Of a stretch of 39,203 nt of DNA, positions 110-39,100 are shown in pieces. Both the position numbers and the translations under genes were made by a program. The stretch spans positions 1-39,203 of the forward strand of contig CAYIHW010000001.1 of the NCBI GenBank assembly GCA_964363335.1, in the 5' to 3' direction. How positions within the stretch are numbered: the stretch's first letter is position 1; every line of letters starts with the position of its first letter. The notes under the pieces are model-generated. The model saw only the letters and a list, made by a program, of their open reading frames with translations, ran no database searches and was not told where the DNA came from. Source of the DNA: an uncultured Candidatus Saccharibacteria bacterium (GTDB lineage: Bacteria; Patescibacteriota; Doudnabacteria; UBA920).

Positions 110-1105
110 TTAGTGTTTGGCTATGTTTATTTGGGAATTCTGAAAATCCCCTTTAATCTGAATTTCTCCGCCAATTGGAAGGGTGATTTTGGGATCGGTG
201 TGACCAAAATCCACATTGGCAATTATGGGCATATTAGCCAGTTCTTTTTTTGATTTTATGATTTGTTTTATCTTTTCGTTCGTAATTTGGCTGGCTTTTT
301 GAAACCTCCCAATGACCAAGCCTTGGACTTTTTCAAAATTTGGTTGCTGAATTAAGGATTGAAGATTGCGGTCAAATTCCATAGCGGAATTTTCTTTTGG
401 CAAGTCATCGTCTTCCAAAAATAAAATACTGTCGTTCAAGTCTGGAAAAAATTCCGTCCCTTGCAGTAGGCTAAAAGTGCAAAGGTTGCCACCCAAGATT
501 ATTCCGTCAGCTTCGCCTTCGTTTACTACCATCCAGCCTTCATTAGGGATGAGGGTACGATTGTTTTGATCTTTAAACCACAAATCATCACTCCAGCTTT
601 TGCTGGGTTTAATTTCAAACGATTCGTCAGAAAATAGACATTTCTTACAGAAATCCGAAGTATAGTCAAAGTGCTTTTCTTGTCCAAAAGTAGAATAATG
701 CGGGCCGTAGTAGCTTATTAACCCTGTCTTGACGTAAACAGCATTATTCAAGATTGTAATATCCGAATAGCCGCAAAGTATTTTTGGGTTATTTTTAACC
801 AGTTGCCAATCAATATATTTTAATAGTTGGTTGGAATTATACCCGCCAATTACCGTAAAGATTGCCTTAACGTTTTTGTCCGCAAACGCTTCATGCAAGT
901 CCTCAATGCGTGATTCTATGCTGGAAGAATTAAACTCGTCTTTTTCTTCAACATGTTTGCCAAAGCTTATCTTTAGCCCCAATTCTTTTAATCGGCGGTT
1001 GGCAGTTTCCCTCAAATTGTTGGAAATAATCCCCAGTGACCTTGCCGGGGCAATAATCCTGACTTCATCCCCAGCCTTAAGTTTTTCCGGATATATTTTA
1101 CTCAT
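110..1105 (-). CDS. LD-carboxypeptidase / MccF-like serine peptidase (S66 family)
   Basis: 331-aa ORF with GDEVRIIAPA near the N-terminus, a GYSDIT nucleophile-type motif and a C-terminal DFGHT motif, all typical of the S66 family. Confidence 0.8.
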   Translation of the reverse strand: MSKIYPEKLKAGDEVRIIAPARSLGIISNNLRETANRRLKELGLKISFGKHVEEKDEFNSSSIESRIEDLHEAFADKNVKAIFTVIGGYNSNQLLKYIDWQLVKNNPKILCGYSDITILNNAVYVKTGLISYYGPHYSTFGQEKHFDYTSDFCKKCLFSDESFEIKPSKSWSDDLWFKDQNNRTLIPNEGWMVVNEGEADGIILGGNLCTFSLLQGTEFFPDLNDSILFLEDDDLPKENSAMEFDRNLQSLIQQPNFEKVQGLVIGRFQKASQITNEKIKQIIKSKKELANMPIIANVDFGHTDPKITLPIGGEIQIKGDFQNSQINIAKH

Positions 1106-1157: not shown

Positions 1158-1187
1158 CAAAAAAATAAGAGCATGGACAAAAAATCC
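1158..1187. repeat. Right copy of the perfect 30-bp inverted repeat
   Basis: CAAAAAAATAAGAGCATGGACAAAAAATCC is the reverse complement of 66-95. It is embedded in the hairpin AATAAGAGC...GCTCTTATTTT, downstream of tRNA-Gln on the minus strand. Confidence 0.9.
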
Positions 1188-1276
1188 GCGCTCTTATTTT
1201 CTATAGTAGTCCTTTTCTTTTTACCTGATTAGAAACTTTGGTTCAGGGTTGGTAGGTCTGTAGGAACCAAAATTGA

Positions 1277-2338: not shown

Positions 2339-2367
2339 CACTATAATACTATATCGTAATATAGTTA
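2339..2367 (+). promoter_or_regulatory. Copy 1 of a 29-nt TATAAT-plus-palindrome motif, 18 nt before the rplJ ATG
   Basis: CACTATAATACTATATCGTAATATAGTTA. It contains ACTATA-N6-TATAGT. Copy 2 is at 16969 and copy 3 at 17495. Confidence 0.6.
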
Positions 2368-2384
2368 AGAAAGATTGTTATATT

Positions 2385-2906
2385 ATGGCTAAATCAAAAT
2401 CACAAAAAGAGAAAGACTTAACCGAGTTAACGGAAAAGTTTAAAGGCGCCAAGTCGATTGTGGTTACCGCTTACAGAGGCACAACCGTAAAAGATATGGA
2501 CACCTTTAGAAATACTTTGCGCAAAGAACAAGTCTTTTCCAAAGTTTACAAAATTCCTTTGGTGAAAAAAGCTATGGAAGCCAGCGGTATTGTTGCTGAA
2601 ACCGTAGACTACAAAGAACCGGTAATTTTGTCTATCTCTAATGAAGACGAAACTGTCGCCGCTAGAGTTATTAAAGCTTTGGGCAACAGTATAAAAACTT
2701 TTGTCATTTTGGAAGGCGTTGTTGAAGGCAAAATGCTGACTAAGGCGGAAATTATCGCTCTGGCCGACCTACCAAGCAAAGACCAGTTGCGTGCTCAGTT
2801 TATGTCAGTGTTGAACGGCCCGGTATCCGCTTTTGCCAGAGTGTTAAAAGCTCGCGCAGAAAAAATCGGGGAAGCAGTCAGCGAACCAGTTGTGGTCGCT
2901 GCTTAA
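2385..2906 (+). CDS. rplJ: 50S ribosomal protein L10
   Basis: 173 aa, sitting immediately upstream of rplL. The L10-like N-terminus (LTEKFKGAKSIVVTAYRGTTV) and C-terminal helix region fit the family. Confidence 0.9.
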   Translation: MAKSKSQKEKDLTELTEKFKGAKSIVVTAYRGTTVKDMDTFRNTLRKEQVFSKVYKIPLVKKAMEASGIVAETVDYKEPVILSISNEDETVAARVIKALGNSIKTFVILEGVVEGKMLTKAEIIALADLPSKDQLRAQFMSVLNGPVSAFARVLKARAEKIGEAVSEPVVVAA

Positions 2907-4634: not shown

Positions 4635-5204
4635 TTATTCAATTTTTTTAAAAGTGTAAATTTTAAGGCTGGTTAGGGGGATTTGGTAGATTTTTTCTAT
4701 AAAGTCGCGGGAAGATTCAAAGTGCGCATTTTTCCAGTCCAGCTCAATGGCTCTGGCCGCGTCTTTAATTAAAGTTTCCGAAGGCCCTTCAATTTCCAGG
4801 TATGGAGGGACCATTGGATGTTCGTCTATGGCAAACTCCACACCGTCCCATAAAAATACCCGGCGTTTTTTTTCCTGAACGCGGAAAGCTACCAGCCCCA
4901 AAGCCTCCAGTAATGACTTAGTTTTGGCCAAATCGTCAACGGTCATTTCAATTTCTTCGGTGCCATTGGGGAAGTCGGAGGTGGTATGCTTATAGGTTAA
5001 TAATTGTTTGGTAGGAGTTTTGCGCAGGCGAACCACTTTTTTTTCGCCCAGCCATTTTTTGTCGGCATCATAAAAAATAGTTTCTTCCAGGAGTTCTTCA
5101 CCTAAATCTTTCGCGCCCATCAACAATAATTTTTTTACGGTTTCCGTTACATCTATCTCCAAAAAACGCACTTCAATTTCTCGGTTATTTATTCCCGCGT
5201 TCAT
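4635..5204 (-). CDS. CYTH-domain protein (CyaB-type class IV adenylate cyclase / triphosphate tunnel metalloenzyme family)
   Basis: 189 aa. N-terminal EIEVRF (ExExK-like) motif, basic residues on alternating strands, and C-terminal YLEIEG, as in CYTH proteins. Confidence 0.65.
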   Translation of the reverse strand: MNAGINNREIEVRFLEIDVTETVKKLLLMGAKDLGEELLEETIFYDADKKWLGEKKVVRLRKTPTKQLLTYKHTTSDFPNGTEEIEMTVDDLAKTKSLLEALGLVAFRVQEKKRRVFLWDGVEFAIDEHPMVPPYLEIEGPSETLIKDAARAIELDWKNAHFESSRDFIEKIYQIPLTSLKIYTFKKIE

Positions 5205-5206
5205 TT

Positions 5207-7258
5207 TTAAGGTAATTTAATTTTTAATAGGCTGGCGTCGTTTAGTAAAAATAGTTCTTTGTTTTTCTCATTAACATAGAAATCAACGGGTTTGGTAAAA
5301 GCAGAAGATCGCAGAGTTTGGATAAGGCTGGCTTTTTTGTCGTAAATTAATATTCGTTTGCTGCCGGAATCTAAAATATAAATGTACTTAAAGTCTTTTT
5401 CCGAATAAATTTTACCGCTTCCCGAAAGGGGCGTGGTAAGTGGGGGAAACGCAAAGTTGGCGAGTTTGCCGTTCTGAAACTTAGTGACGCCGGTTTTGCT
5501 TAATACATAAATCGCGCCATCTATGGAAATATCCACGGCCTCGCTTAACGATTGGTCGCGTACCGCCACTACGGGCTTGCTAAAAGACTGCCCGCCGGAA
5601 AGAAAGCTAATTATGCTGGCGGATTTTTTATCGACTAAATACACTCTTTTATTGGTTGGGTAATAAGCCAGACCGCCGAAAGAACTTTTATCCGGAACGT
5701 TTTGGGAAAAAATATTGCCGGTTTTGCCGGAACTGTAATCCCATAATAAAATTGAGCCGCCTTCGTAAATTGCGGCCGTGGTCTTGTCGGTAAAAATTGA
5801 AGAAACGGCTGTTGGTTCGAGTTTTAAAAAGCTATCTTCAATTTTTCCATTTTGCCGGTTGTAACTAATGATTTGACCATTGACTTGCACGGCAAAGTAG
5901 CCGGGAAGTTTTATTAACGCGTTTGCCTGGCCCAATGACCCCAAATTTTCTGTTTCGGTTTGGGTGATTTTTTCCATTTGCTGTTGGGTTTCCGCCAGCT
6001 GGGCGGCGACGGTTTGGTATAGCCCTTTATTGGAGGAATCTACTTTGTCTTCCGCCGGCATTTTAGCTACGGCTTGTTTTAAGAAGTTTGCGGCTTTAGC
6101 ATCGTCTTTATAAAGCAGCGACGATTGGGAACTGGACAGTAGAGACTGAGTATCTTTTAGTGCGGCGGAAATTTGAGCGGCTATCGCGCGGGTTTTTTTA
6201 ACGCGCAAGGCAATGCTAATGTTGGCAATTACCGCGATGAGTAAAATAATAATAGATGCCAAGAGGAATTTTTTTACCGGGCTAAAAGCTTTAATGTTTT
6301 CCATTTTTACGGATGAACCGGCTTTTTTAATAGATGAACCGGCTTTTTGCGCGGATTGGCCGGCGGTTTTTAACCAGTCTTTGCTATTTTGGAAGAAATT
6401 TTTAGTTCCATTGGGCAAATTTTGCAGCCGTTGTTTAAAGGAAATTTTTGGCAAATTAATTTTTGGCGTTCGGTTAACCGATTTATCCAGAGCAAAAATG
6501 CTTTTTATGTACGCCAGGGTTTTGCCAAAAAAACTTACGCCGCCCGGAGTTTCCACAATATAATTTTCCAAATCCACTTCTTCTTCCGTGGCTTGGCCGG
6601 GCTCGACTTGCAAATTTAACAGGACGCCAAAACTGGTTTGGGGGTCGGCATTGTCTTTTAATAGCGCGATTATGGTTTGGGTAGCGGTTAAAAATGGGGC
6701 ATTGCTGACAATAGTTTGCAGTCGATCCATGGACAAATGGTTAAACAGCTGGGTGGTGGAAAGAATAACTAAATCGCCCAAGCGAATTTTTCCTGCGGCA
6801 AAAGTTTCAAAGGTCTTTAAGGGATGGCTTTGTTCGGGAGAACAGGAAATGTCCGTGTATTCTTTATTGCGCAATAAAAACGCGGAGACTTTGCCACAAC
6901 TGGCAATGCTAAAATTCCGGCCATCTTTTACTCCCAACACGCAATTAAGTTTGTCTATCCATTGAGTCTGGCCTAACGAGGCCAGTTTGCCCAACTCCTC
7001 GTTTATTTGGCTAATGGCAGTTTCAAAGTTGTCCCCGCCGGTGGGTTTTCTATATGCCCTTTTTAGCGTGGAGGAAATTGCCAGACAAATTCTTTCGCAG
7101 GCTTCTACGGCCGCGGGGTTAAAAAGCGGCAGTTCGACAACAACATAGAGCTCCGATTGGCCAAAATCGGCTTTTTCGGCCATAGTATAAACGTAAGTGC
7201 TGGAGGCCTTGGTGTTTCCAAGTAAAATTTTCGCAATTTGTGATTCTGTTTCTTCCAT
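5207..7258 (-). CDS. Membrane-anchored protein: PP2C-like (probably inactive) N-terminal domain, one TM helix, repeat-rich C-terminal domain
   Basis: 683 aa with a TM segment FLLASIIILLIAVIANISIAL. The N-terminal pattern resembles the PP2C/SpoIIE fold but lacks the GDS-type Asp (ASCGKVSAFLL). The C-terminal half has beta-propeller-like repeats. A stop-to-start gap of 2 nt separates it from the CYTH gene. Confidence 0.5.
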   Translation of the reverse strand: MEETESQIAKILLGNTKASSTYVYTMAEKADFGQSELYVVVELPLFNPAAVEACERICLAISSTLKRAYRKPTGGDNFETAISQINEELGKLASLGQTQWIDKLNCVLGVKDGRNFSIASCGKVSAFLLRNKEYTDISCSPEQSHPLKTFETFAAGKIRLGDLVILSTTQLFNHLSMDRLQTIVSNAPFLTATQTIIALLKDNADPQTSFGVLLNLQVEPGQATEEEVDLENYIVETPGGVSFFGKTLAYIKSIFALDKSVNRTPKINLPKISFKQRLQNLPNGTKNFFQNSKDWLKTAGQSAQKAGSSIKKAGSSVKMENIKAFSPVKKFLLASIIILLIAVIANISIALRVKKTRAIAAQISAALKDTQSLLSSSQSSLLYKDDAKAANFLKQAVAKMPAEDKVDSSNKGLYQTVAAQLAETQQQMEKITQTETENLGSLGQANALIKLPGYFAVQVNGQIISYNRQNGKIEDSFLKLEPTAVSSIFTDKTTAAIYEGGSILLWDYSSGKTGNIFSQNVPDKSSFGGLAYYPTNKRVYLVDKKSASIISFLSGGQSFSKPVVAVRDQSLSEAVDISIDGAIYVLSKTGVTKFQNGKLANFAFPPLTTPLSGSGKIYSEKDFKYIYILDSGSKRILIYDKKASLIQTLRSSAFTKPVDFYVNEKNKELFLLNDASLLKIKLP

Positions 7259-7386
7259 AAGTATTCGCAGAATAAATTAAAAATCCAGACCCGATTTGGT
7301 TTCAGAAATGTTTAATCTTTATCTTATATATTATACAACATTTAACCGAAAATGAAAATATGCTATAATTATAGGGAAATAAATAT

Positions 7387-7548
7387 TAGACTTGTTGCTT
7401 AATAATTTTCCGCCCAAAATATGCTCTTTCGCCAAAACCTTGTTAAAAATTTCTCCGCTTAACTACGGTTAAACATCAAAATTTATAAACTGCGGTTTTG
7501 TCTGAAATATCATATTTTGCTTCGAAAAATTATTAAGCAGCAAGTCTA
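7387..7548 (+). repeat. E1: 162-bp hairpin element (long imperfect palindrome with a conserved apical core)
   Basis: Termini TAGACTTGTTGCTTAATAATTTT / AAAATTATTAAGCAGCAAGTCTA. Core AAAAATTTCTCCGCTTAAC-TACG-GTTAAACATCAAAATTT at 7445-7484. Preceded by TATAATTATAGG at 7364. Confidence 0.9.
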
Positions 7549-7636
7549 TTATAAATATAAAGACTTAATTTGGCTGGTTAAATTGTGGAAATTTAATTAG
7601 GCGCCTTAGCGCGGGATTTAATCATAATATTCATTT

Positions 7637-16968: not shown

Positions 16969-16997
16969 CACTATAATACTATATCGTATCATAGTAA
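16969..16997 (+). promoter_or_regulatory. Copy 2 of the 29-nt TATAAT-plus-palindrome motif, directly upstream of the TrpR/YerC-like gene
   Basis: CACTATAATACTATATCGTATCATAGTAA. The first 20 nt are identical to copy 1 at 2339. Confidence 0.6.
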
Positions 16998-17003
16998 GAA
17001 TAT

Positions 17004-17495
17004 ATGACGAAATTATCTAAAAAACTTGTAGACCCAAAAGAAATGGGTAACTATATAAATAATTTTTGGTCTGCGTTAACTTTAATGGATACCAAAGAAG
17101 ATGTTAAGCAATTGGTCAAAGATCTCTTTACGCATACCGAATATAAAATGTTAGCAAAAAGATTAGAGATTGGCAGGTTGTTGCTGGCTGGCTCTGACTA
17201 TAACACAATTGAAAAAAAGCTCAGGGTTACTCCAGTTACCATATCACGGATAAGCAATGTTTTAGCTGAGAAGGGGGCAGGTTTAAGAAAAGCAAATAAT
17301 AAATTAAATTTAATTGAAGAAAAACACCTTTCGAGACAGATAGAAAGAACTAAAAATTTAGAAAATCCATTTAGGCAAAAGATAAATAGGAAAACTCTGG
17401 GCGGGTCTTTAATTAAAGCCGGTTTGTCGGCGCTTGATAAAAAAATAACTAAATCAATAAAGCAAAATTCAGCGAAAAAATTATTAGAAATTTAA
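17004..17495 (+). CDS. TrpR/YerC-YecD-like DNA-binding protein
   Basis: 163 aa. The segment FTHTEYKMLAKRLEIGRLLLAGSDYNTIEKKLRVTPVTISRISNVL matches the Trp-repressor-like HTH pattern. Confidence 0.65.
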   Translation: MTKLSKKLVDPKEMGNYINNFWSALTLMDTKEDVKQLVKDLFTHTEYKMLAKRLEIGRLLLAGSDYNTIEKKLRVTPVTISRISNVLAEKGAGLRKANNKLNLIEEKHLSRQIERTKNLENPFRQKINRKTLGGSLIKAGLSALDKKITKSIKQNSAKKLLEI

Positions 17496-17523
17496 ACTAT
17501 ATTACTATATCGTATTATAGTCA
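17495..17523 (+). promoter_or_regulatory. Copy 3 of the 29-nt motif, overlapping the stop codon of the TrpR-like gene and preceding a small lipoprotein ORF
   Basis: AACTATATTACTATATCGTATTATAGTCA, with perfect ACTATA-N6-TATAGT arms. Confidence 0.6.
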
Positions 17524-17541
17524 TTATTTCAGGAAGGATTT

Positions 17542-17664
17542 ATGAAAAAAAGTATTTTAATTATTGCATTTTTAAGTTTACTGGCGGCGGGGTGTGGAAA
17601 GGTGGTTTTAAAACAAGAAATTCCATCTAGTCCGAAAGAATCATATCAAGAGTTGCCGAAGTAA
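17542..17664 (+). CDS. Small putative lipoprotein (40 aa), absent from the ORF track
   Basis: MKKSILIIAFLSLLAAGCGKVV... A signal peptide with a lipobox-like LAAGC, and AGGAAGG 5 nt upstream of the ATG. lgt is present in this window. Confidence 0.5.
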   Translation: MKKSILIIAFLSLLAAGCGKVVLKQEIPSSPKESYQELPK

Positions 17665-17684: not shown

Positions 17685-17857
17685 AGACTGTTAAATAAAC
17701 CTGTTGGTCATAAAATACAATTAAGCCTTGAATAAAGGCTTAATTGTTTGTATTTAATTAACCAATTTCGTTTATGAAATCAGTACTATATATTGTAGCA
17801 AGGGTTAACTTTAGGAAGAAAACTTGATTAATTACCAACGGGATTACTTAACAGTCT
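17685..17857. repeat. E5: 173-bp element with 24-bp imperfect terminal inverted repeats related to E1-E4
   Basis: AGACTGTTAAATAAACCTGTTGGT (17685-17708) versus ACCAACGGGATTACTTAACAGTCT (17834-17857), matching at 20/24 positions by hand. It lacks the E1-E4 apical core. Confidence 0.7.
17718..17755. terminator. Intrinsic terminator between convergent genes, inside E5
   Basis: CAATTAAGCC-TTGAATAAA-GGCTTAATTG followed by TTTGTATTT. Confidence 0.7.
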
Positions 17858-23467: not shown

Positions 23468-24400
23468 ATGAATTATGGAAAAGTAAAATATTTGATATTT
23501 TTGTTATTGCTTATATTCCTTGGATATTTTTTAAGCCAGGTTTTTTCTGGTAATGTAATTTTGTCGCAAGCGTTTTTTGTCGGGCCTCTAGCGATCCACT
23601 ATTATGGCTTAATAATGGCTTTGGCCGTGGGGGCAGGATTTTATTTAGCAATAAAAAGAGCAACTGGATTTGGGATTAGCAAATCTTCAGCGGAAGATTT
23701 TTTATTTTGGGTAATTATTGGGGGCTTCATTGGGGCTCGTTTGTACCATATAATGTCATCACTTGAATACTATATACAAAACCCGATTAATATTATTAAA
23801 GTCTGGAACGGCGGTCTGTCTATCTACGGCGCCCTAATCGGAGGAGTTATTATAATTCTGTATTTATCTAAAAGCTATAAGCCCCGCCTGCAATCGCCTG
23901 AGGCTCAAGCCGATGGCGGGCAGGTAAAAGCTATAAGCTTGCTAGACTGGCTTGCGCCATCTCTCATCCTCGGCCAAATCATTGGCCGGTTTGGCAACCT
24001 ATTTAATTACGAAGCCTACGGTTATCCGACAAGCGTGCCTTGGAAAATGTTTGTGCCTCAGCAATTTAGGCCAGAGACTTACATAGCCCAGAACTATTTC
24101 CACCCATTTTTTCTTTACGAGGTTTTAGGGAGCCTTTTCATCTTAGGCATAATTTATTATATTTCCCGATTTCGGACACAGCAAACCGGTAAATACCGTA
24201 TTTTTGCCAATGATGGTACGCTTTTCTTTTCCTACGTTTTATTGTATAATAGTTTAAGGTTTTGCTTAGAGTTTTTAAGAATTGACAGCACTTTCATTGG
24301 GGTTTTTAGACTAAATGCCATAATTAGTTTGGTGTTGGTTTTATTGGCCGTCGGTGGATTTTTTGCCTTAAACTATAAATGCTCCAGAGACACAAATTAA
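23468..24400 (+). CDS. lgt: Prolipoprotein diacylglyceryl transferase with an in-frame insertion
   Basis: 310 aa, polytopic. Lgt motifs HYYGLIMA, GARLYH and GRFGNLFNYEAYG are present. Confidence 0.9.
   Translation: MNYGKVKYLIFLLLLIFLGYFLSQVFSGNVILSQAFFVGPLAIHYYGLIMALAVGAGFYLAIKRATGFGISKSSAEDFLFWVIIGGFIGARLYHIMSSLEYYIQNPINIIKVWNGGLSIYGALIGGVIIILYLSKSYKPRLQSPEAQADGGQVKAISLLDWLAPSLILGQIIGRFGNLFNYEAYGYPTSVPWKMFVPQQFRPETYIAQNYFHPFFLYEVLGSLFILGIIYYISRFRTQQTGKYRIFANDGTLFFSYVLLYNSLRFCLEFLRIDSTFIGVFRLNAIISLVLVLLAVGGFFALNYKCSRDTN
23869..23938. repeat. 42-bp GC-rich palindrome flanked by 14-bp direct repeats, inside lgt
   Basis: TAAAAGCTATAAGC at 23869-23882 and 23925-23938 flanks CCCGCCTGCAATCGCCTGAGGCTCAAGCCGATGGCGGGCAGG. 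The reverse complement closely matches the element at 38069-38116. Confidence 0.85.
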
Positions 24401-28816: not shown

Positions 28817-28978
28817 TAGACTTGTTGCTTAATAATTTTTTGAAGCAAAATATGATATTTCAGACAAAACCGCAGTTTATAAATTTTGATGTTTAACCAT
28901 AGTTAAGCGGAGAAATTTTTAACAAGGTTTTGGCGAAAGAGCATATTTTGGGCGAAAAATTATTAAGCAACAAGTCTA
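28817..28978 (-). repeat. E2: inverted, near-identical copy of E1
   Basis: It starts on the nucleotide after the rfbD TAA. The reverse complement of E1 differs at 4 of 162 positions with no indels, by manual alignment. Confidence 0.9.
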
Positions 28979-33266: not shown

Positions 33267-33295
33267 TTGACAAAAGTACTAAAAAGTATTATAAT
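33267..33295 (+). promoter_or_regulatory. Consensus sigma70-type promoter of the giant surface-protein gene
   Basis: TTGACA (33267-33272), a 17-nt spacer, then TATAAT (33290-33295). The downstream TATAATTATAGG...GAAATAAAT string is shared with the region upstream of E1. Confidence 0.65.
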
Positions 33296-33341
33296 TATAG
33301 GTTGAGAAATAAATGAGTTTAAAACTCTCAATTCCAGTGTA

Positions 33342-33510
33342 TTAAGGGACTGTTGCCGAATGTCATTTTTGCCCAAAAAGAGCTTGTTTGGTAAAATTCC
33401 CAAAAAAATTTATCCGCTTACCTTTCAGGTAAACATCAAAATTTGTTTTGAAAATTTTCCTCAAACCCGTCTCTTGCATCAAAAAGCCCATTCGGCAACA
33501 GCCCCATTAA
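33342..33510 (+). repeat. E3: 169-bp hairpin element in the 5' UTR of the giant gene
   Basis: TTAAGGGACTGTTGCCGAATG ... CATTCGGCAACAGCCCCATTAA. Core AAAAATTTATCCGCTTACC-TTTCA-GGTAAACATCAAAATTT. Confidence 0.9.
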
Positions 33511-33560: not shown

Positions 33561-36500
33561 ATGAATAATCTTATGAGCATAATTAAAAGGTTAGCAAAAC
33601 CAGGATCCTTAGCGTCTTTTTTGACTTTGGTTTTGGTTACCGCTGTTTTAATAGTCTCGCCGCAAAAAATCAACGTGGCTAAATCGGAAAGCTGTTCTAA
33701 TGCTCCGGCCATAGCGACTTTGAATTTTTTTCCGGTAACATGGGATAGTACCGCTGGCTACGGCTGTACCGATTTTGCCCCGATCGCCGTGCGTAATTTG
33801 GAAGAGACCGGATATGTTTCAAATGACTATGGCTTGCCTGGTGATGAGTTGTACGTGAGGATTTACGTTCACAACGGAGCCCAGCAAGGCCTGGACTCCA
33901 GCCAAACTACGGCTTTTGGTGTTAATGGAAGCTTTTCAATTTCCGGTAATACTGTCAGCACATCATTTTCCGGCACTCGAGGAGATGGCAGTGTAACTAA
34001 TACTGTAAATGGCAGTGTGACGATAGATTTACCGGAGGGTGGTAATCTGGAAATAGTTCCTAACAGCGGACAATTTTTTGACTATCAAGCAAATCAGATT
34101 TCCGGTAATGACAATTTAGCCGGCAACTCCGGCAGTTTTGATATGGGCGAAATGCAAGCCTGCTTTGAATTTTCTAAATTTTATCGGTTTAAAGTTAAAG
34201 TAGTTGGTGGAACTATTACTCCTCCGGCTGGCCAAACTATTACCGGGCAAATTTCCAGCGCTATTGGAATTTGTAAGGCCAATGGTTTGTATAACGCCAA
34301 CGTAAACTGGAATACCAATGCCAGCCAGCCGCTGGTTACTGTTAGCGACCCTGCTTTAAACTCCGACAATTATTACGATAACGATAAAATTTTTAGCTAT
34401 AGCCCGCAGAGTAACGAAACCGTGGATTGGATTAGCCCAAATAGCGGCTATCGTTTTTCTCTGTGGTCCATTGATCCAAGCGGCGAAAGCCATTCTTTCC
34501 GCGATATAAATAACAACCGCGTGACTGTTAAAGCAGTAAAGCTTTATGAGACTTGGGTTTCATCCGGCGCTTCTTGTGGCCAGACCGTCCCTCCGGTGGA
34601 AAAAGTTCCTTCTGGCAATATCACCGCCACTACGCCGACTAAATTATCTGGCCAGTGTTTATTCCAAAACACCGTTTCTTGGACTACCCAGAATGTTACT
34701 TCTGCCAGAGTTGATGTTACTGACTTAAAAGATAACGTTACTAACGTAGTTGGTTATAATTTGAATGACACCACTACCGACACTGCTTGGCTACAACCGG
34801 ATAGATCCTATCGTTTTACTTTATATAATACTGCTAACGGCCAAGATAAATTGGATTCAGCGGACGTTACCATTGGTTCTTGTGGCACCACTCCGCCTCC
34901 AGTGCAAGCTCCTTCCGGTCGAATTTCCGCTTCTCCAGCAGTAAAAATTAGCGGTATGTGTTTCTTTAGAACCACTGTCATTTGGGCAACTCAAAATGTT
35001 ACCTCTGCTGTGGTAGAAGTTACCGATATGGCAGAAAATGTTACCAATGTGGTTGGTTATAATTTAAACGATACTACTTCCGATACCTCCTGGATGCAGG
35101 CGGATAGAACCTATCGGTTTACTCTATACAATACTGCCAATGGTAAAAATCAATTGGCTTACGCCGATGTTACTACTGCTGGTTGCGGAACAACTCCGCC
35201 TCCGGTTTGCGTTGTTAATACCAACTACTTCTTAAATGCCGCCGCTCCGGTAAAGCAAGATTCTAACTATTCGGTAAAATTGACTTGGGGTTCTGACGGT
35301 AATAACCAGATTAAATTAACTCAAGTTAATTCCAATAATTCGGAAACTGCTTTAACCACAGGCGCTAACAACGGCACTTTTACCACCTCTGCTAATTTGC
35401 AGGCTGGTAACACCTATACTTTTAAGATTTACGACGCCAACCCGGAATGCGGAAAATTCTTAACTTCCACTCAGGTCGTTATCCAATCCTCTCCATCTCA
35501 GTTAGTCTGTTCTGCCGACAGTTCTGTTTATAATGTTGGTCAACCGGCCACTTTTAGAGCGACTGGCGGGACATCTCCGTATACTTGGACTGGCAATGGA
35601 CAATCTTTTACCGGTAGTGTCTTTACCACGGTTTATACTACCAGCGGCAATAAAAATGTGATTGTGTTTAGCAATGACGGACAGACTGCCAATTGTAGTA
35701 CTTCTATTAACCAGCCGGTAACGGAAAAAGGGATTGTGAATTTGACCAAAGAAGTCAGAAATGGCGAAGGTTCTTTTGCCCACGCCGCATCCGCCAAGCA
35801 AAATGACATTGTGGAATATCGAATTAAAGTTTGGGCGGGCAGTTCCGTTGCCCTAACTAATGTTGTGGTAACCGATACTTTTGCTTCCGGACTGTCATAC
35901 GTAGAAGGTTCCTTAAAAGTTGACGGACAGTCTCACGCAAGCGGTTTAACTTCCGGCGGCTTAAACTTTAGCTCTATCTCTCAAACTCCAAAAGTTATAA
36001 CTTATAAAGCGAAAGTTACGGCAACGATGGGCAGTATTGTTAATACCGCCCAAGGCTTTGCGCAAAATGCCAATAACGCGGCAAATGATCAAGCCATAGT
36101 TAACGTTTCCTTTGTTAACCCCGGCCAGCCTTCTTTGAGCATTACCAAACAGGTAAAAAATGTTACCCAAAATACCGATTACGACACTGCCGTTTTAGCC
36201 AAGAAGAACGATGTTGTTAAGTACCAGGTAGTTATTAAAAATGTCGGTCAAGCCACTGCGAAAAATGTCTATTTCAACGACAGTAATCCGGCGCAAGTTC
36301 AGCCCCTTTCTAACCTAAGCGTATCGGCTAGCTTTACCGGTGGAATCCCCCAAGGTGTTTCTTTGGGAGATTTAGCGGCCGGTGCCAGCGTGGTTATTAC
36401 TTATCAAGGAACAGTAAAAGTTGATAGCGGTACAATTTTAAACATGGCTACTGTTTCCGCGGACAATGCTACCAGCCAAAATGCTTCCGCTACGGTCACT

Positions 36501-37592
36501 ATTACCACCCAGCCAAATAACAACGGCGGTGTAACCAACAATTATTGTGTAAACTATTCTTGCAACACCATAATCAATACTACTAATACAACAAACACCA
36601 CCAACACAAATACGAACAACTACAACAACTACAGTTACGTTTATATCAATAGCACCGGCAATACAGTCCCGGCCAGCCAATACAGCCAGCTTGGAGTGTC
36701 CAAGTCCGTCCGGTTATCGGGTAGTGGCGCATTCCAAAACAGCGTTACAGTAAACAATAACGACACAGTGGAATTTGAAATTGTGGTTACAAATACAGGC
36801 AACCAGAACATTAATAATGTCCGGTTGATCGATAATTTAACCAATGGTTTAAGCATAGTTTCCGGTACGGTACGCGTGGATGGCTCCTATGTTTCCGACA
36901 GCAATTTATACAGCGGAATATATTTGGGCAGTCTATCTGCCGGCGCGCAAAAGCGTGTTAACTTTCAAGCCAGAATTAATAACAATAATAACTCCAGCAT
37001 TCAGAATATTGCCGTGGCTTCCGGCGACAACACTTCTTCCGTCCAAGATGACGCTTGGGTGTTCATTAACACCGGTTCTGTCCAGGGCGGCAATGTGAGC
37101 TTAACTTACAGCAAGAAAGCTTTCAATGAAACTAAGAATCAAGATGCGACAGCTATCACCGCTTCCAAAGAAAATTATATTGTCTATACTTTAACTGCCG
37201 CCAATAACGGAAACACTCCGGCCAATAACTTTGTTATAACCGATGATTTGTCACAGGTTTTACCTTACGCTGACATTGCGGATAACGGCGGCGGCACAGT
37301 AAGCGGAAATGTAATTTCTTTCCCCGGGCTGACCGTACCGGCATACGGCGCGGTTTCCCGAAGTTTTAAAGTCAGAGTAAAGTATTCCTTGGCCGATAAC
37401 TTATCTTATGTTATGACCAACACTTATGGCAATAGCATTTCAGTTAGAATTAATACGCCTCAGGTATTAGGAGTATTTGTTGCTCCAAAAACCGGTGCTG
37501 AAACCGGAGCCTTTGCTTTTGCTGGCTTGCTGACCGCGGCAACAGCCTTGATTAAACGCAGAAAGCAATTATTAAAGCTAATATTCACTTAA
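33561..37592 (+). CDS. Giant cell-surface protein (DUF11-type repeats) with a sortase sorting signal
   Basis: 1343 aa. AAGGAG lies 10 nt upstream. Features: an N-terminal signal/TM, four ~100-aa Cys-bounded modules, a PKD-like module, several DUF11-like repeats (NDxVxYxIxVxNxG pattern), and the C-terminal APKTG plus a hydrophobic helix plus KRRK. Confidence 0.85.
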   Translation: MNNLMSIIKRLAKPGSLASFLTLVLVTAVLIVSPQKINVAKSESCSNAPAIATLNFFPVTWDSTAGYGCTDFAPIAVRNLEETGYVSNDYGLPGDELYVRIYVHNGAQQGLDSSQTTAFGVNGSFSISGNTVSTSFSGTRGDGSVTNTVNGSVTIDLPEGGNLEIVPNSGQFFDYQANQISGNDNLAGNSGSFDMGEMQACFEFSKFYRFKVKVVGGTITPPAGQTITGQISSAIGICKANGLYNANVNWNTNASQPLVTVSDPALNSDNYYDNDKIFSYSPQSNETVDWISPNSGYRFSLWSIDPSGESHSFRDINNNRVTVKAVKLYETWVSSGASCGQTVPPVEKVPSGNITATTPTKLSGQCLFQNTVSWTTQNVTSARVDVTDLKDNVTNVVGYNLNDTTTDTAWLQPDRSYRFTLYNTANGQDKLDSADVTIGSCGTTPPPVQAPSGRISASPAVKISGMCFFRTTVIWATQNVTSAVVEVTDMAENVTNVVGYNLNDTTSDTSWMQADRTYRFTLYNTANGKNQLAYADVTTAGCGTTPPPVCVVNTNYFLNAAAPVKQDSNYSVKLTWGSDGNNQIKLTQVNSNNSETALTTGANNGTFTTSANLQAGNTYTFKIYDANPECGKFLTSTQVVIQSSPSQLVCSADSSVYNVGQPATFRATGGTSPYTWTGNGQSFTGSVFTTVYTTSGNKNVIVFSNDGQTANCSTSINQPVTEKGIVNLTKEVRNGEGSFAHAASAKQNDIVEYRIKVWAGSSVALTNVVVTDTFASGLSYVEGSLKVDGQSHASGLTSGGLNFSSISQTPKVITYKAKVTATMGSIVNTAQGFAQNANNAANDQAIVNVSFVNPGQPSLSITKQVKNVTQNTDYDTAVLAKKNDVVKYQVVIKNVGQATAKNVYFNDSNPAQVQPLSNLSVSASFTGGIPQGVSLGDLAAGASVVITYQGTVKVDSGTILNMATVSADNATSQNASATVTITTQPNNNGGVTNNYCVNYSCNTIINTTNTTNTTNTNTNNYNNYSYVYINSTGNTVPASQYSQLGVSKSVRLSGSGAFQNSVTVNNNDTVEFEIVVTNTGNQNINNVRLIDNLTNGLSIVSGTVRVDGSYVSDSNLYSGIYLGSLSAGAQKRVNFQARINNNNNSSIQNIAVASGDNTSSVQDDAWVFINTGSVQGGNVSLTYSKKAFNETKNQDATAITASKENYIVYTLTAANNGNTPANNFVITDDLSQVLPYADIADNGGGTVSGNVISFPGLTVPAYGAVSRSFKVRVKYSLADNLSYVMTNTYGNSISVRINTPQVLGVFVAPKTGAETGAFAFAGLLTAATALIKRRKQLLKLIFT
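34575..35183 (+). repeat. Tandem duplication of a ~102-aa module inside the giant gene
   Basis: Units 34575-34880 and 34881-35183 both run from CG(Q/T)T-PPPV... to ...YRFTLYNTANG...DVT. Long identical stretches include NVTNVVGYNLNDTT. Confidence 0.85.
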
Positions 37593-37759
37593 AGGGTCTG
37601 TTGCCGAATGTCATTTTGACTGCAATTTCAGAATTTCGGCCATTCGACCCAAAAAATTTATCCGCTTAACTAAAAGTTAAACATCAAAATTTGTTTGTGT
37701 CGACTGTCTCGAAATTCTGAAATTTCGTTACAAAAGCACATTCGGCAACAGACCCTTAA
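37589..37759 (+). repeat. E4: 171-bp hairpin element in the 3' UTR of the giant gene
   Basis: Its terminal TTAA supplies the TAA stop at 37590-37592. TTAAAGGGTCTGTTGCCGAATG ... CATTCGGCAACAGACCCTTAA. Core AAAAATTTATCCGCTTAAC-TAAAA-GTTAAACATCAAAATTT. Confidence 0.9.
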
Positions 37760-37768
37760 ATTAGAGGG

Positions 37769-37812
37769 AAAATGGAGCCTTGCCCATGTTGGGCTCAAGG
37801 CTCCATTTTTTG
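37769..37812 (+). terminator. Intrinsic terminator of the giant gene
   Basis: ATGGAGCCTTGCCCA-TGT-TGGGCTCAAGGCTCCAT followed by a T6 run. Confidence 0.85.
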
Positions 37813-37909: not shown

Positions 37910-39100
37910 TTGTTAAATTATTATACAGTTATGAACAATTTTTATCTTCAAGAGCTAATAGAAGAAGCTCAGAATCGCGGCGGCGGAATGATTTTGAATT
38001 ACGAAGAAAAACCGGCGGTGGTGGTTTTAACGGTGGAAAAATATAACACGTTACTTCAAAATCAAGAATCTCCTGCCCGCCAGATGTCTGAGCCTCAGGC
38101 GATGGCAGGCGGGAGAATTAATGATGTCAAAGCAACAAGAGTTTTGGTAACAGGCGGGGCGGGTTATATTGGCGGACACTTAGTCAGAGAATTAATAAAG
38201 CAAAACTACGAAGTTGTGGTCTTGGACAATTTGTCCACCGGCCGGAGGGAAAACATCGACCCGCGTGCAATTTTTGTGGAAGGGGATTTGGCGGATCAAA
38301 ATTTACTTCGCGATTTATTTGCCGCCAATAAATTTTCAGCGGTGTTTCATTTGGCTGCCAGTTTGGAAGTTGAAGAATCCGTGAGAGAACCTGAAAAGTA
38401 TTATCGCAACAACGTTTTAAATACGGCGCGTTTGCTGGGTGTTATGAATGAGGCTGGGATGAAAAAAATAATTTTTTCATCTACCGCTGCCATTTACGGC
38501 GAAGCCGCGCAAGTACCGATTTCAGAAACCGCGCCGCTGCACCCGAATAATCCGTATGGATACAGCAAGCTTCTCGCCGAAAGGACAATAAAATATTATT
38601 GCGAATTTTTGGGCTTCTCCGCGGTGGTCTTTCGCTACTTTAATGCTTGTGGGTTTGATGTGGAGGCAAAAATTTTGCCCACTCACCAGTCTCACTTAAT
38701 TTTCAATGTCATGCAGGTTGCCAAAGGCGAAAAGCCCGTTTTAACTGTTTTTGGCAACGATTATTCCACTTTTGACGGCACCGGCGTACGGGATTATGTT
38801 CATGTGTTGGATATTGCCTTGCCGCATATTGAAGCCTTAAAGCAGATGGAGAGTAATTCTAAATACGAAGTGTATAACATTGGCACCGGCGTTGGCTTAA
38901 GTGTGGCGCAAATTGTTAACACTGCTTCGGAAATTTTAAATAAAATTATTCCTATGGAAGTATCACCCCGGCGTCCTGGGGATTCCGCTGTTACCATTGC
39001 CGACAACACTAAATTGTTAAACGGCTTGGGCTACCGCCCCCGCCATAGCGATTTGCAAAACATTATAACTACCAGCTGGGAAGTTTTGAAAAACATTTGA
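37910..39100 (+). CDS. galE: UDP-glucose 4-epimerase-like SDR, read as one ORF with an N-terminal Phd/YefM-like segment
   Basis: 396 aa. The GalE core runs from about residue 77 (RVLVTGGAGYIGGH, YGYSKLLAE). Residues 8-52 resemble a Phd/YefM antitoxin N-domain. The track start is a TTG; ATGs lie at 37931, 38084 and 38102. Confidence 0.8.
   Translation: MLNYYTVMNNFYLQELIEEAQNRGGGMILNYEEKPAVVVLTVEKYNTLLQNQESPARQMSEPQAMAGGRINDVKATRVLVTGGAGYIGGHLVRELIKQNYEVVVLDNLSTGRRENIDPRAIFVEGDLADQNLLRDLFAANKFSAVFHLAASLEVEESVREPEKYYRNNVLNTARLLGVMNEAGMKKIIFSSTAAIYGEAAQVPISETAPLHPNNPYGYSKLLAERTIKYYCEFLGFSAVVFRYFNACGFDVEAKILPTHQSHLIFNVMQVAKGEKPVLTVFGNDYSTFDGTGVRDYVHVLDIALPHIEALKQMESNSKYEVYNIGTGVGLSVAQIVNTASEILNKIIPMEVSPRRPGDSAVTIADNTKLLNGLGYRPRHSDLQNIITTSWEVLKNI
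38069..38116. repeat. 48-bp GC-rich palindrome inside the galE-like ORF, same family as the lgt insert
   Basis: The core CCTGCCCGCCAGATGTCTGAGCCTCAGGCGATGGCAGGCGGG (38072-38113, flanked by TCT and AGA) compares with the reverse complement of the lgt element (23882-23924), CCTGCCCGCCATCGGCTTGAGCCTCAGGCGATTGCAGGCGGGG. Confidence 0.85.

Follow-up and report, generated by a model that had tools for sequence, protein, structure and literature searches.

A stretch of 39,203 nucleotides from an uncultured Candidatus Saccharibacteria bacterium (Doudnabacteria in GTDB; contig CAYIHW010000001.1), hereafter the window, contains several hairpin repeats of roughly 160 bp, and the question that they raise is whether these repeats are mobile DNA or folded molecules maintained by selection. 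The original prediction had listed five such elements (E1 to E5) and had considered them not MITE-like and a member of no described class. The current analysis leads to a different view. With a probability of about 85%, E1 to E4 are non-autonomous hairpin MITEs that borrow the transposase of an IS5-family element and belong to a family widespread in the Patescibacteria. Terminal repeats, target-site duplications, empty and filled insertion sites and, for the E3/E4 type, an IS5-family partner all contradict the earlier exclusion of a MITE origin.

The feature common to E1–E4 is a 37-nt apex located within a full-length hairpin of ~160 bp (Table 1). The apex pattern AATTTNTCCGC-N11-18-AACATCAAAATTT has exactly four matches in the window and none in 100 shuffles, which bears out the common apex originally proposed. 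The terminal inverted repeats of E1–E4 match at 13–14 of 14 terminal nucleotides, and E2 is 98% identical to the reverse complement of E1. None of the listed window ORFs of at least 80 aa lies inside E1–E4, and no transposase gene is carried by them. A profile of the E1–E4 family run on the window matches these four elements only and does not match E5 (nhmmer, E>10), which is therefore separate from the family; E5 lacks the apex as well, and its interior is unrelated to that of E1–E4. Four of the five elements first listed are real members of one family, although the spans first given for them had taken in the target-site duplications.

Table 1. Positions of the repeat elements and of the features around them in the window.
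Feature	Position	Strand	Description
E1 MITE	7388-7547	- (folding)	160 bp, AGAC-ended subfamily
E1 target-site duplication	7385-7387 left, 7548-7550 right		ATT, 3 bp
E1 apex	7448-7484	-	motif AAATTTTGATGTTTAAC-CGTA-GTTAAGCGGAGAAATT, folding-strand spelling
E2 MITE	28818-28977	+ (folding)	160 bp, AGAC-type ends
E2 flanking triplets			AAT/AAA, imperfect duplication
E3 MITE	33346-33505	- (folding)	160 bp, GGGNCTGTTGCCGAATG-ended subfamily
E3 target-site duplication	33341-33345 left, 33506-33510 right		ATTAA, 5 bp
E4 MITE	37594-37755	- (folding)	162 bp, 17-nt ends equal to those of E3
E4 target-site duplication	37589-37593 left, 37756-37760 right		TTAAA, 5 bp; left copy contains the TAA stop of the ORF
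Apex pattern match	7448-7484	+
Apex pattern match	28881-28917	-
Apex pattern match	33407-33444	+
Apex pattern match	37655-37692	+
E5	17685-17857		173-bp MITE-like element; ~30-nt inverted ends starting AGACTGTT; internal terminator-like hairpin; no apex
Promoter-like site before E1	7342-7369	+
ORF after E1	7637 (start)
rmlD stop codon	28814-28816
rmlA start	29008
Promoter-like site before E3	33267-33295		perfect TTGACA-17-TATAAT
ORF with its stop codon at the E4 insertion point	33561-37592
Hairpin after E4	~37774-37810		terminator-like
42-nt hairpin in Lgt ORF	23883-23924		between 14-nt direct repeats TAAAAGCTATAAGC (23869-23882, 23925-23938)
42-nt hairpin, second copy	38072-38113		inverted (86% complementary)
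~27-nt motif	2339-2386		just before L10 gene start
~27-nt motif	16969-17016		before TrpR-like ORF
~27-nt motif	17495-17542		just after TrpR-like ORF
42-nt inverted repeats	54-95, 1158-1199		90% complementary
LD-carboxypeptidase ORF	110-1105	-	flanked by the preceding pair

Several other repeats are found in the window. An unrelated, GC-rich palindromic hairpin of 42 nt, CCCGCCTGCAATCGCCTGAGGCTCAAGCCGATGGCGGGCAGG, occurs twice: the copy in the Lgt ORF looks inserted, possibly in frame, while the other lies immediately before the probable true start of an epimerase gene. A motif of ~27 nt, ACTATAATACTATATCGTA(A/T)(T/C)ATAGT, which has an inverted repeat, occurs at three sites and may be a shared promoter or operator. 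Lastly, a pair of 42-nt inverted repeats flanks the LD-carboxypeptidase ORF.

Evidence that the E1–E4 family is mobile comes from its insertion sites. Direct repeats of 5 bp flank eight GGG-ended copies, including E3 and E4 (TTAAA, ATTAA, ATTAT, TTATA, TGAAT, CTTAA, ATCGC and GTTAT), and direct repeats of 3 bp flank nine AGAC-ended copies, E1 among them, as well as eight GAGG-ended copies; the 3-bp pattern AAT/ATT/TAT recurs among other AGAC-type copies. Since these repeats are fixed in length and variable in sequence, they are target-site duplications. Orthologous empty sites were absent from the loci initially collected and were later found via RmlD homologues. At locus L225, which encodes an RmlD 79% identical to that of the window, the rmlD-rmlA spacer is 53 nt long, homologous to the window flanks and without an element, and it is therefore the empty site for E2. 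At locus L223 (RmlD 75% identical), a GAAC-ended family copy lies between rmlA and the next gene; these two genes are 1 nt apart in the window, which thus provides an empty site relative to L223.

A scan of metagenomes using the E3/E4 end as query recovered three classes of sequence: 160-bp hairpins, several other short elements of 64–175 bp, and elements of ~1.23–1.27 kb that have the end on both sides and encode a single ORF of ~335 aa. The ISs of ~1.25 kb are surrounded by the 5-bp duplications TTGGC, TTAAC and ATTTG, the last of these around a copy of 1,275 bp, and a further copy of 1,266 bp with both ends reading GGGACTGTTGCCGAATA is present in a Candidatus Vogelbacteria MAG. The ORF contains the Pfam domains DUF772 (6.6e-22) and DDE_Tnp_1 (2.8e-10), and over 2,500 of its homologues are annotated as IS5 family transposase. 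On the NCBIfam IS5 model NF033581, one representative (P0031) scores 146.9 bits against a cut-off of 140 and another (P0090) falls just below it at 139.0. Tn3-like and IS6-like elements were considered in view of GGGG / GGnnCTGTTGCAAA ends, and both candidates were set aside when the IS5-family partner came to light. The usual duplication of the IS5 subgroup is 4 bp, making the 5 bp observed here atypical. The original prediction would have accepted a MITE if an autonomous partner had the same ends and the same core; the partner shares the ends, but not the core. As only the 17-nt ends are common to both, a derivation of the core from the observed IS copies by simple deletion was rejected.

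Based upon these features, a likely course of events can be outlined. An IS5-family DDE transposase, encoded elsewhere, would bind the ~17-nt terminal inverted repeats and mobilise the unit in trans, inserting it in AT-rich intergenic DNA and frequently directly at a stop or start codon. Staggered cuts in the target would then be repaired to give the 5-bp duplication of the E3/E4 type or the 3-bp duplication of the E1/E2 type, and for the latter we infer an IS5-like partner as well. The interior is a hairpin of ~75 bp with a conserved apex, its pairing kept by compensatory changes between lineages. Certain observations do weigh against a MITE origin. Beyond the 17-nt ends, nothing is shared between IS and MITE, and a transposase or IS5-like gene was found neither in the window nor in the 8-kb loci surrounding the MAG copies. 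Likewise, a combined search for inverted-end pairs and a transposase profile in 1.48 Mb of loci found no partner IS for the AGAC (E1/E2), GAGG or other end types. Transposase biology also leaves the strand asymmetry described below unaccounted for.

When examining the distribution of the family, it is evident that it extends well beyond the window. An apex-pattern scan with the stem left free, which sampled one genome per species, found at least 89 stretches, nearly all in Patescibacteria MAGs; the host labels among the matches listed are Doudnabacteria, Uhrbacteria, Magasanikbacteria, unclassified and bins labelled Saccharibacteria, and the apex was absent from viral contigs. The closest relatives of the window's RmlD are those of Doudnabacteria, and the organism is also present in Hainich groundwater metagenomes. 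Among the matches listed, many copies lie 40–80 nt from contig ends, as expected of an assembly-breaking repeat. Length hardly varies among the 74 distinct full copies (~160 nt) and their alignment is almost gapless; their arms are therefore diverged homologues. The arms had earlier been described as self-complementary and as unrelated between elements. They are indeed self-complementary, but the near-gapless alignment and common motifs are at odds with the second description, and the arms of E1 and E3 are visibly homologous.

The core is common to at least eight end types, namely GGGNCTGTTGCC (E3 and E4), AGAC(T/C)TGTTGC (E1 and E2), AGCCTTGTAGC, GAGGCTGTC, GAACCTAT, GTAACCTCTG, (T)AGTTTCTGTCG and AGACCGCTTGC. 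One core on ends with differing duplication lengths is unusual for MITEs. It is conceivable, albeit unlikely, that the core of ~125 nt with its near-invariant apex constitutes a functional module in single-stranded form, as RNA or DNA, which the ends of several different IS5-type transposons have carried, or taken up more than once, across Patescibacteria. If this were true, the core would not be a passive palindrome but a “cargo” fold of use to the element or its host, for instance as a processing or stability signal or by helping transposition.

Individual copies exhibit further peculiarities. Five (L002, L030, L033, L038 and L089) have AGAC-type right ends and the duplication TAT exactly at TATG start codons; their right ends read ...AAGAGGTCT / ...AAAGGTCT, and judging from these letters the gene downstream may receive a Shine-Dalgarno-like sequence from the end of the element. 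An entire intergenic spacer is taken up by several copies, 0–3 nt from both ORFs. In five others (L027, at 5200-5410 on the minus strand of its locus, L072, L079, L067 and L086), insertions of ~30–45 nt, composed of small GC-rich hairpins, lie in the apex or an arm, which suggests the nested insertion of another tiny palindromic element.

One of the key properties of the family is its fold. With z-scores of -10.4 for E1, -7.2 for E3 and -13.0 for E4, each of these elements forms a single long hairpin. Covariation was assessed in 67 distinct aligned copies against a 72-pair hairpin on the complement of the strand originally read. On the alignment in the original orientation RNAalifold gave only 14 pairs, due to register shifts, and the majority structure of the individual folds of the other strand was used instead. 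Standard pairs occupy 87.0% of cells, compared to 68.9% in shuffles and 36–57% with partners slid, both sides have changed in 50 of the 72 pairs, and none of 500 shuffles attains any of the observed values, although these counts are inflated by shared ancestry and also confounded by the DNA-palindrome nature of the sequence. In the apical stem, the originally described compensatory change from TTAAC/GTTAA to TTACC/GGTAA is genuine, and the position concerned exhibits all four Watson-Crick pairs (A-T, G-C, C-G and T-A) across 90+ copies in other genomes. The expectation of a hairpin under compensatory change has thus held up.

Compensated pairs could also arise if template switching in quasi-palindromes during replication copied one arm onto the other, in which case no folded form would be under selection, with the core as a passenger. 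One published account describes this mechanism as able to create and maintain hairpins and to mimic compensatory substitution (PMC8794818). In agreement with it, many of the pair changes are transversion flips (A-U to U-A, G-C to C-G), which have no possible wobble intermediate. Furthermore, MITEs of 98, 108 and 174 bp have the same ends and are not full hairpins; therefore, the transposase probably does not need a hairpin, which would make this structure dispensable for recognition. We nonetheless consider template switching an unlikely explanation. It should yield no strand preference, whereas all 17 subfamilies favour the same strand, with differing wobble positions. The constant length and near-invariant apex over deep divergence suggest purifying selection, and the one young burst of copies examined lacks compensated changes altogether. 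This burst (11 copies in one MAG) exhibits uncompensated decay only, as opposed to 85 compensated changes in older clusters. The constraint therefore seems to fall on “master” lineages that keep transposing, and not on every copy once inserted. Non-hairpin elements of 98 bp with IS5-type ends were seen many times (L095, L105, L160, L181 and L184).

The strand preference itself is pronounced. The complement of the originally read strand is more stable in 67/67 copies, with a mean of -68.0 vs -52.1 kcal/mol, and forms 307 G·U pairs against 91 on the other strand. The apex alone gives the same result in 67/67 copies, and the arms alone do so in 60/67 copies and, after clustering at 80% identity, in 17/17 clusters. 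DNA energy parameters, applied to E3 only, point in the same direction more weakly (-39.5 vs -34.1 kcal/mol). Counting G·U against A·C in fixed columns reveals only a modest bias, 170 vs 120, and the asymmetry stands out more in the energies of folding. Of the remaining mismatches on the folding strand, many are purine-purine, and two of the four differences between E1 and E2 are toggles from Watson-Crick to G·U on that strand.

The apex flanks are particularly instructive. These (ATCCGC/ACATCA on the strand originally read) had been regarded as unable to pair and as a recognition surface. The inability to pair applies only to that strand, and the view of a recognition surface comes from its being the less structured of the two. 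On the folding strand, the flanks TGATGT/GCGGAN pair as U·G, G-C and U·G (columns 83/105, 84/104 and 85/103) in all 67 aligned copies, an invariance that was forced by the search pattern in the first copy set. By our own reading, a tandem G·A/A·G would adjoin these pairs, and the variant copy L171 has U-A pairs in place of the G·A pairs. In a set selected by ends, three elements (L112, L126 and L121) are 160-bp hairpins with the same arms and a different apex. Four elements (L112, L126, L177 and L186) are hairpins of 160 bp that combine IS5-type ends and E4-like arms with another apex, which indicates a modular exchange of the apex. We would guess that the constraint acts on the element in single-stranded form, either RNA or single-stranded DNA. 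The original proposal of selection on a folded nucleic acid therefore survives in part: compensatory changes and strand asymmetry do point to a single-stranded form, but not to something other than a MITE.

The genomic positions of the copies in the window bear upon whether such a strand might be an RNA that serves the host. The window contains one hairpin MITE per ~10 kb, all at gene boundaries, and their positions fit 5' UTRs, 3' UTRs and an operon spacer. E1 is located between a promoter-like site and the start of an ORF, and E2 between rmlD and rmlA. E3 follows a promoter-like site and precedes a 1343-aa ORF, probably within its 5' UTR, whereas E4 was inserted at a stop codon and is followed by a terminator-like hairpin. 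Given the promoter-like site before E3 and the hairpin after E4, these two elements bracket the gene for the 1343-aa DUF11 surface protein and apparently lie inside its transcript. Two other roles for the apex were examined and discarded: as a promoter (TTGATG...TAAATT), its spacing of 19–21 nt is too long as read from the sequence, and a small ORF within it is, by the same kind of reading, not conserved.

According to a further explanation, the repeats are primarily structured RNAs, either small RNA genes or cis-regulatory elements, with the apex as a binding site for protein or RNA and with mobility being incidental. The strong covariation, the positions fitting UTRs or operon spacers, the retention of one apex across many end types, and the strand-specific stability, with its G·U pairs and, by reading, tandem G·A, are all compatible with such RNAs. 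Even so, this explanation appears highly improbable. Orientation relative to neighbouring genes is mixed (in the frame of the folding strand, both antisense in 25 cases, both sense in 10, divergent in 17 and convergent in 9), and the predicted mRNA at E1, E3 and E4 carries the weaker-folding strand. Additionally, no conserved sigma-70-like promoter was seen inside E1, E3 or E4, recent copies decay at random, and insertion sites differ between close relatives. Searches of Rfam found no family match at the elements at the gathering threshold and, in E-value mode, only sub-threshold generic miRNA-precursor hairpins. That the elements are single-stranded DNA substrates of a tyrosine or HUH enzyme (like integron attC sites, RAYT-moved REPINs or IS200/IS605 derivatives) is scarcely credible: their conserved ends, variable self-complementary arms and preferred strand are reminiscent of attC and REPINs, and the asymmetry persists for E3 under DNA energy parameters, but this origin is largely refuted by duplications of fixed length and variable sequence, the signature of DDE-type staggered cuts, and by ends matching a DDE IS5-family element, while copies are scattered rather than arranged in cassette arrays and no integrase, RAYT or TnpA gene was detected among the 15 window ORFs scanned against Pfam.

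As non-autonomous MITEs, E1–E4 can be compared with several known elements. MITEs classically fold into long RNA stem-loops (PMC3184786, PMC10969869), and bcr1 of the Bacillus cereus group, an element of ~155 bp, is similar in its size, its 5-bp direct repeats, its non-conserved positions and a long fold kept through compensatory changes (PMC3184786). Long stem-loop MITEs with compensatory changes have therefore already been described, and the E1–E4 family is a new example. It differs from bcr1 in belonging to another phylum, in the lack of any sequence relation, in having an IS5-family partner for one subfamily, and in a core that occurs on at least eight end types, whose duplications measure 3 or 5 bp. 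The ISs of the metagenomes and the Vogelbacteria MAG are identical to E3 and E4 in their ends and 5-bp duplication, but encode the transposase that E1–E4 lack and have nothing in common with them past 17 nt. The ERIC/IRU, Correia (NEMIS) and RUP elements resemble the family in being inverted-repeat elements that are short and intergenic. Those families either duplicate TA or have different partners, and we know of none reported from Patescibacteria. Such elements are co-transcribed with neighbouring genes and form RNA stem-loops (PMC3184786, PMC10969869). A search of the literature on MITEs in Patescibacteria found nothing relevant. The integron attC sites and REPINs share conserved ends, variable self-complementary arms and a preferred folding strand with E1–E4, which differ from them by their target duplications and DDE-type ends; attC sites and REPINs move as single-stranded hairpins via tyrosine or HUH enzymes, without target duplications. 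The distinctive feature of the E1–E4 family is one well-conserved folded core on many end types, together with a strand-biased fold.

The genomes of Patescibacteria are tiny and generally considered poor in mobile elements. The E1–E4 family breaks metagenome assemblies, with many contigs ending inside copies, and its recognition aids both annotation and assembly. Since the same ends occur on hairpin and non-hairpin elements, the family is also a natural test of why some MITEs retain a full-length fold.
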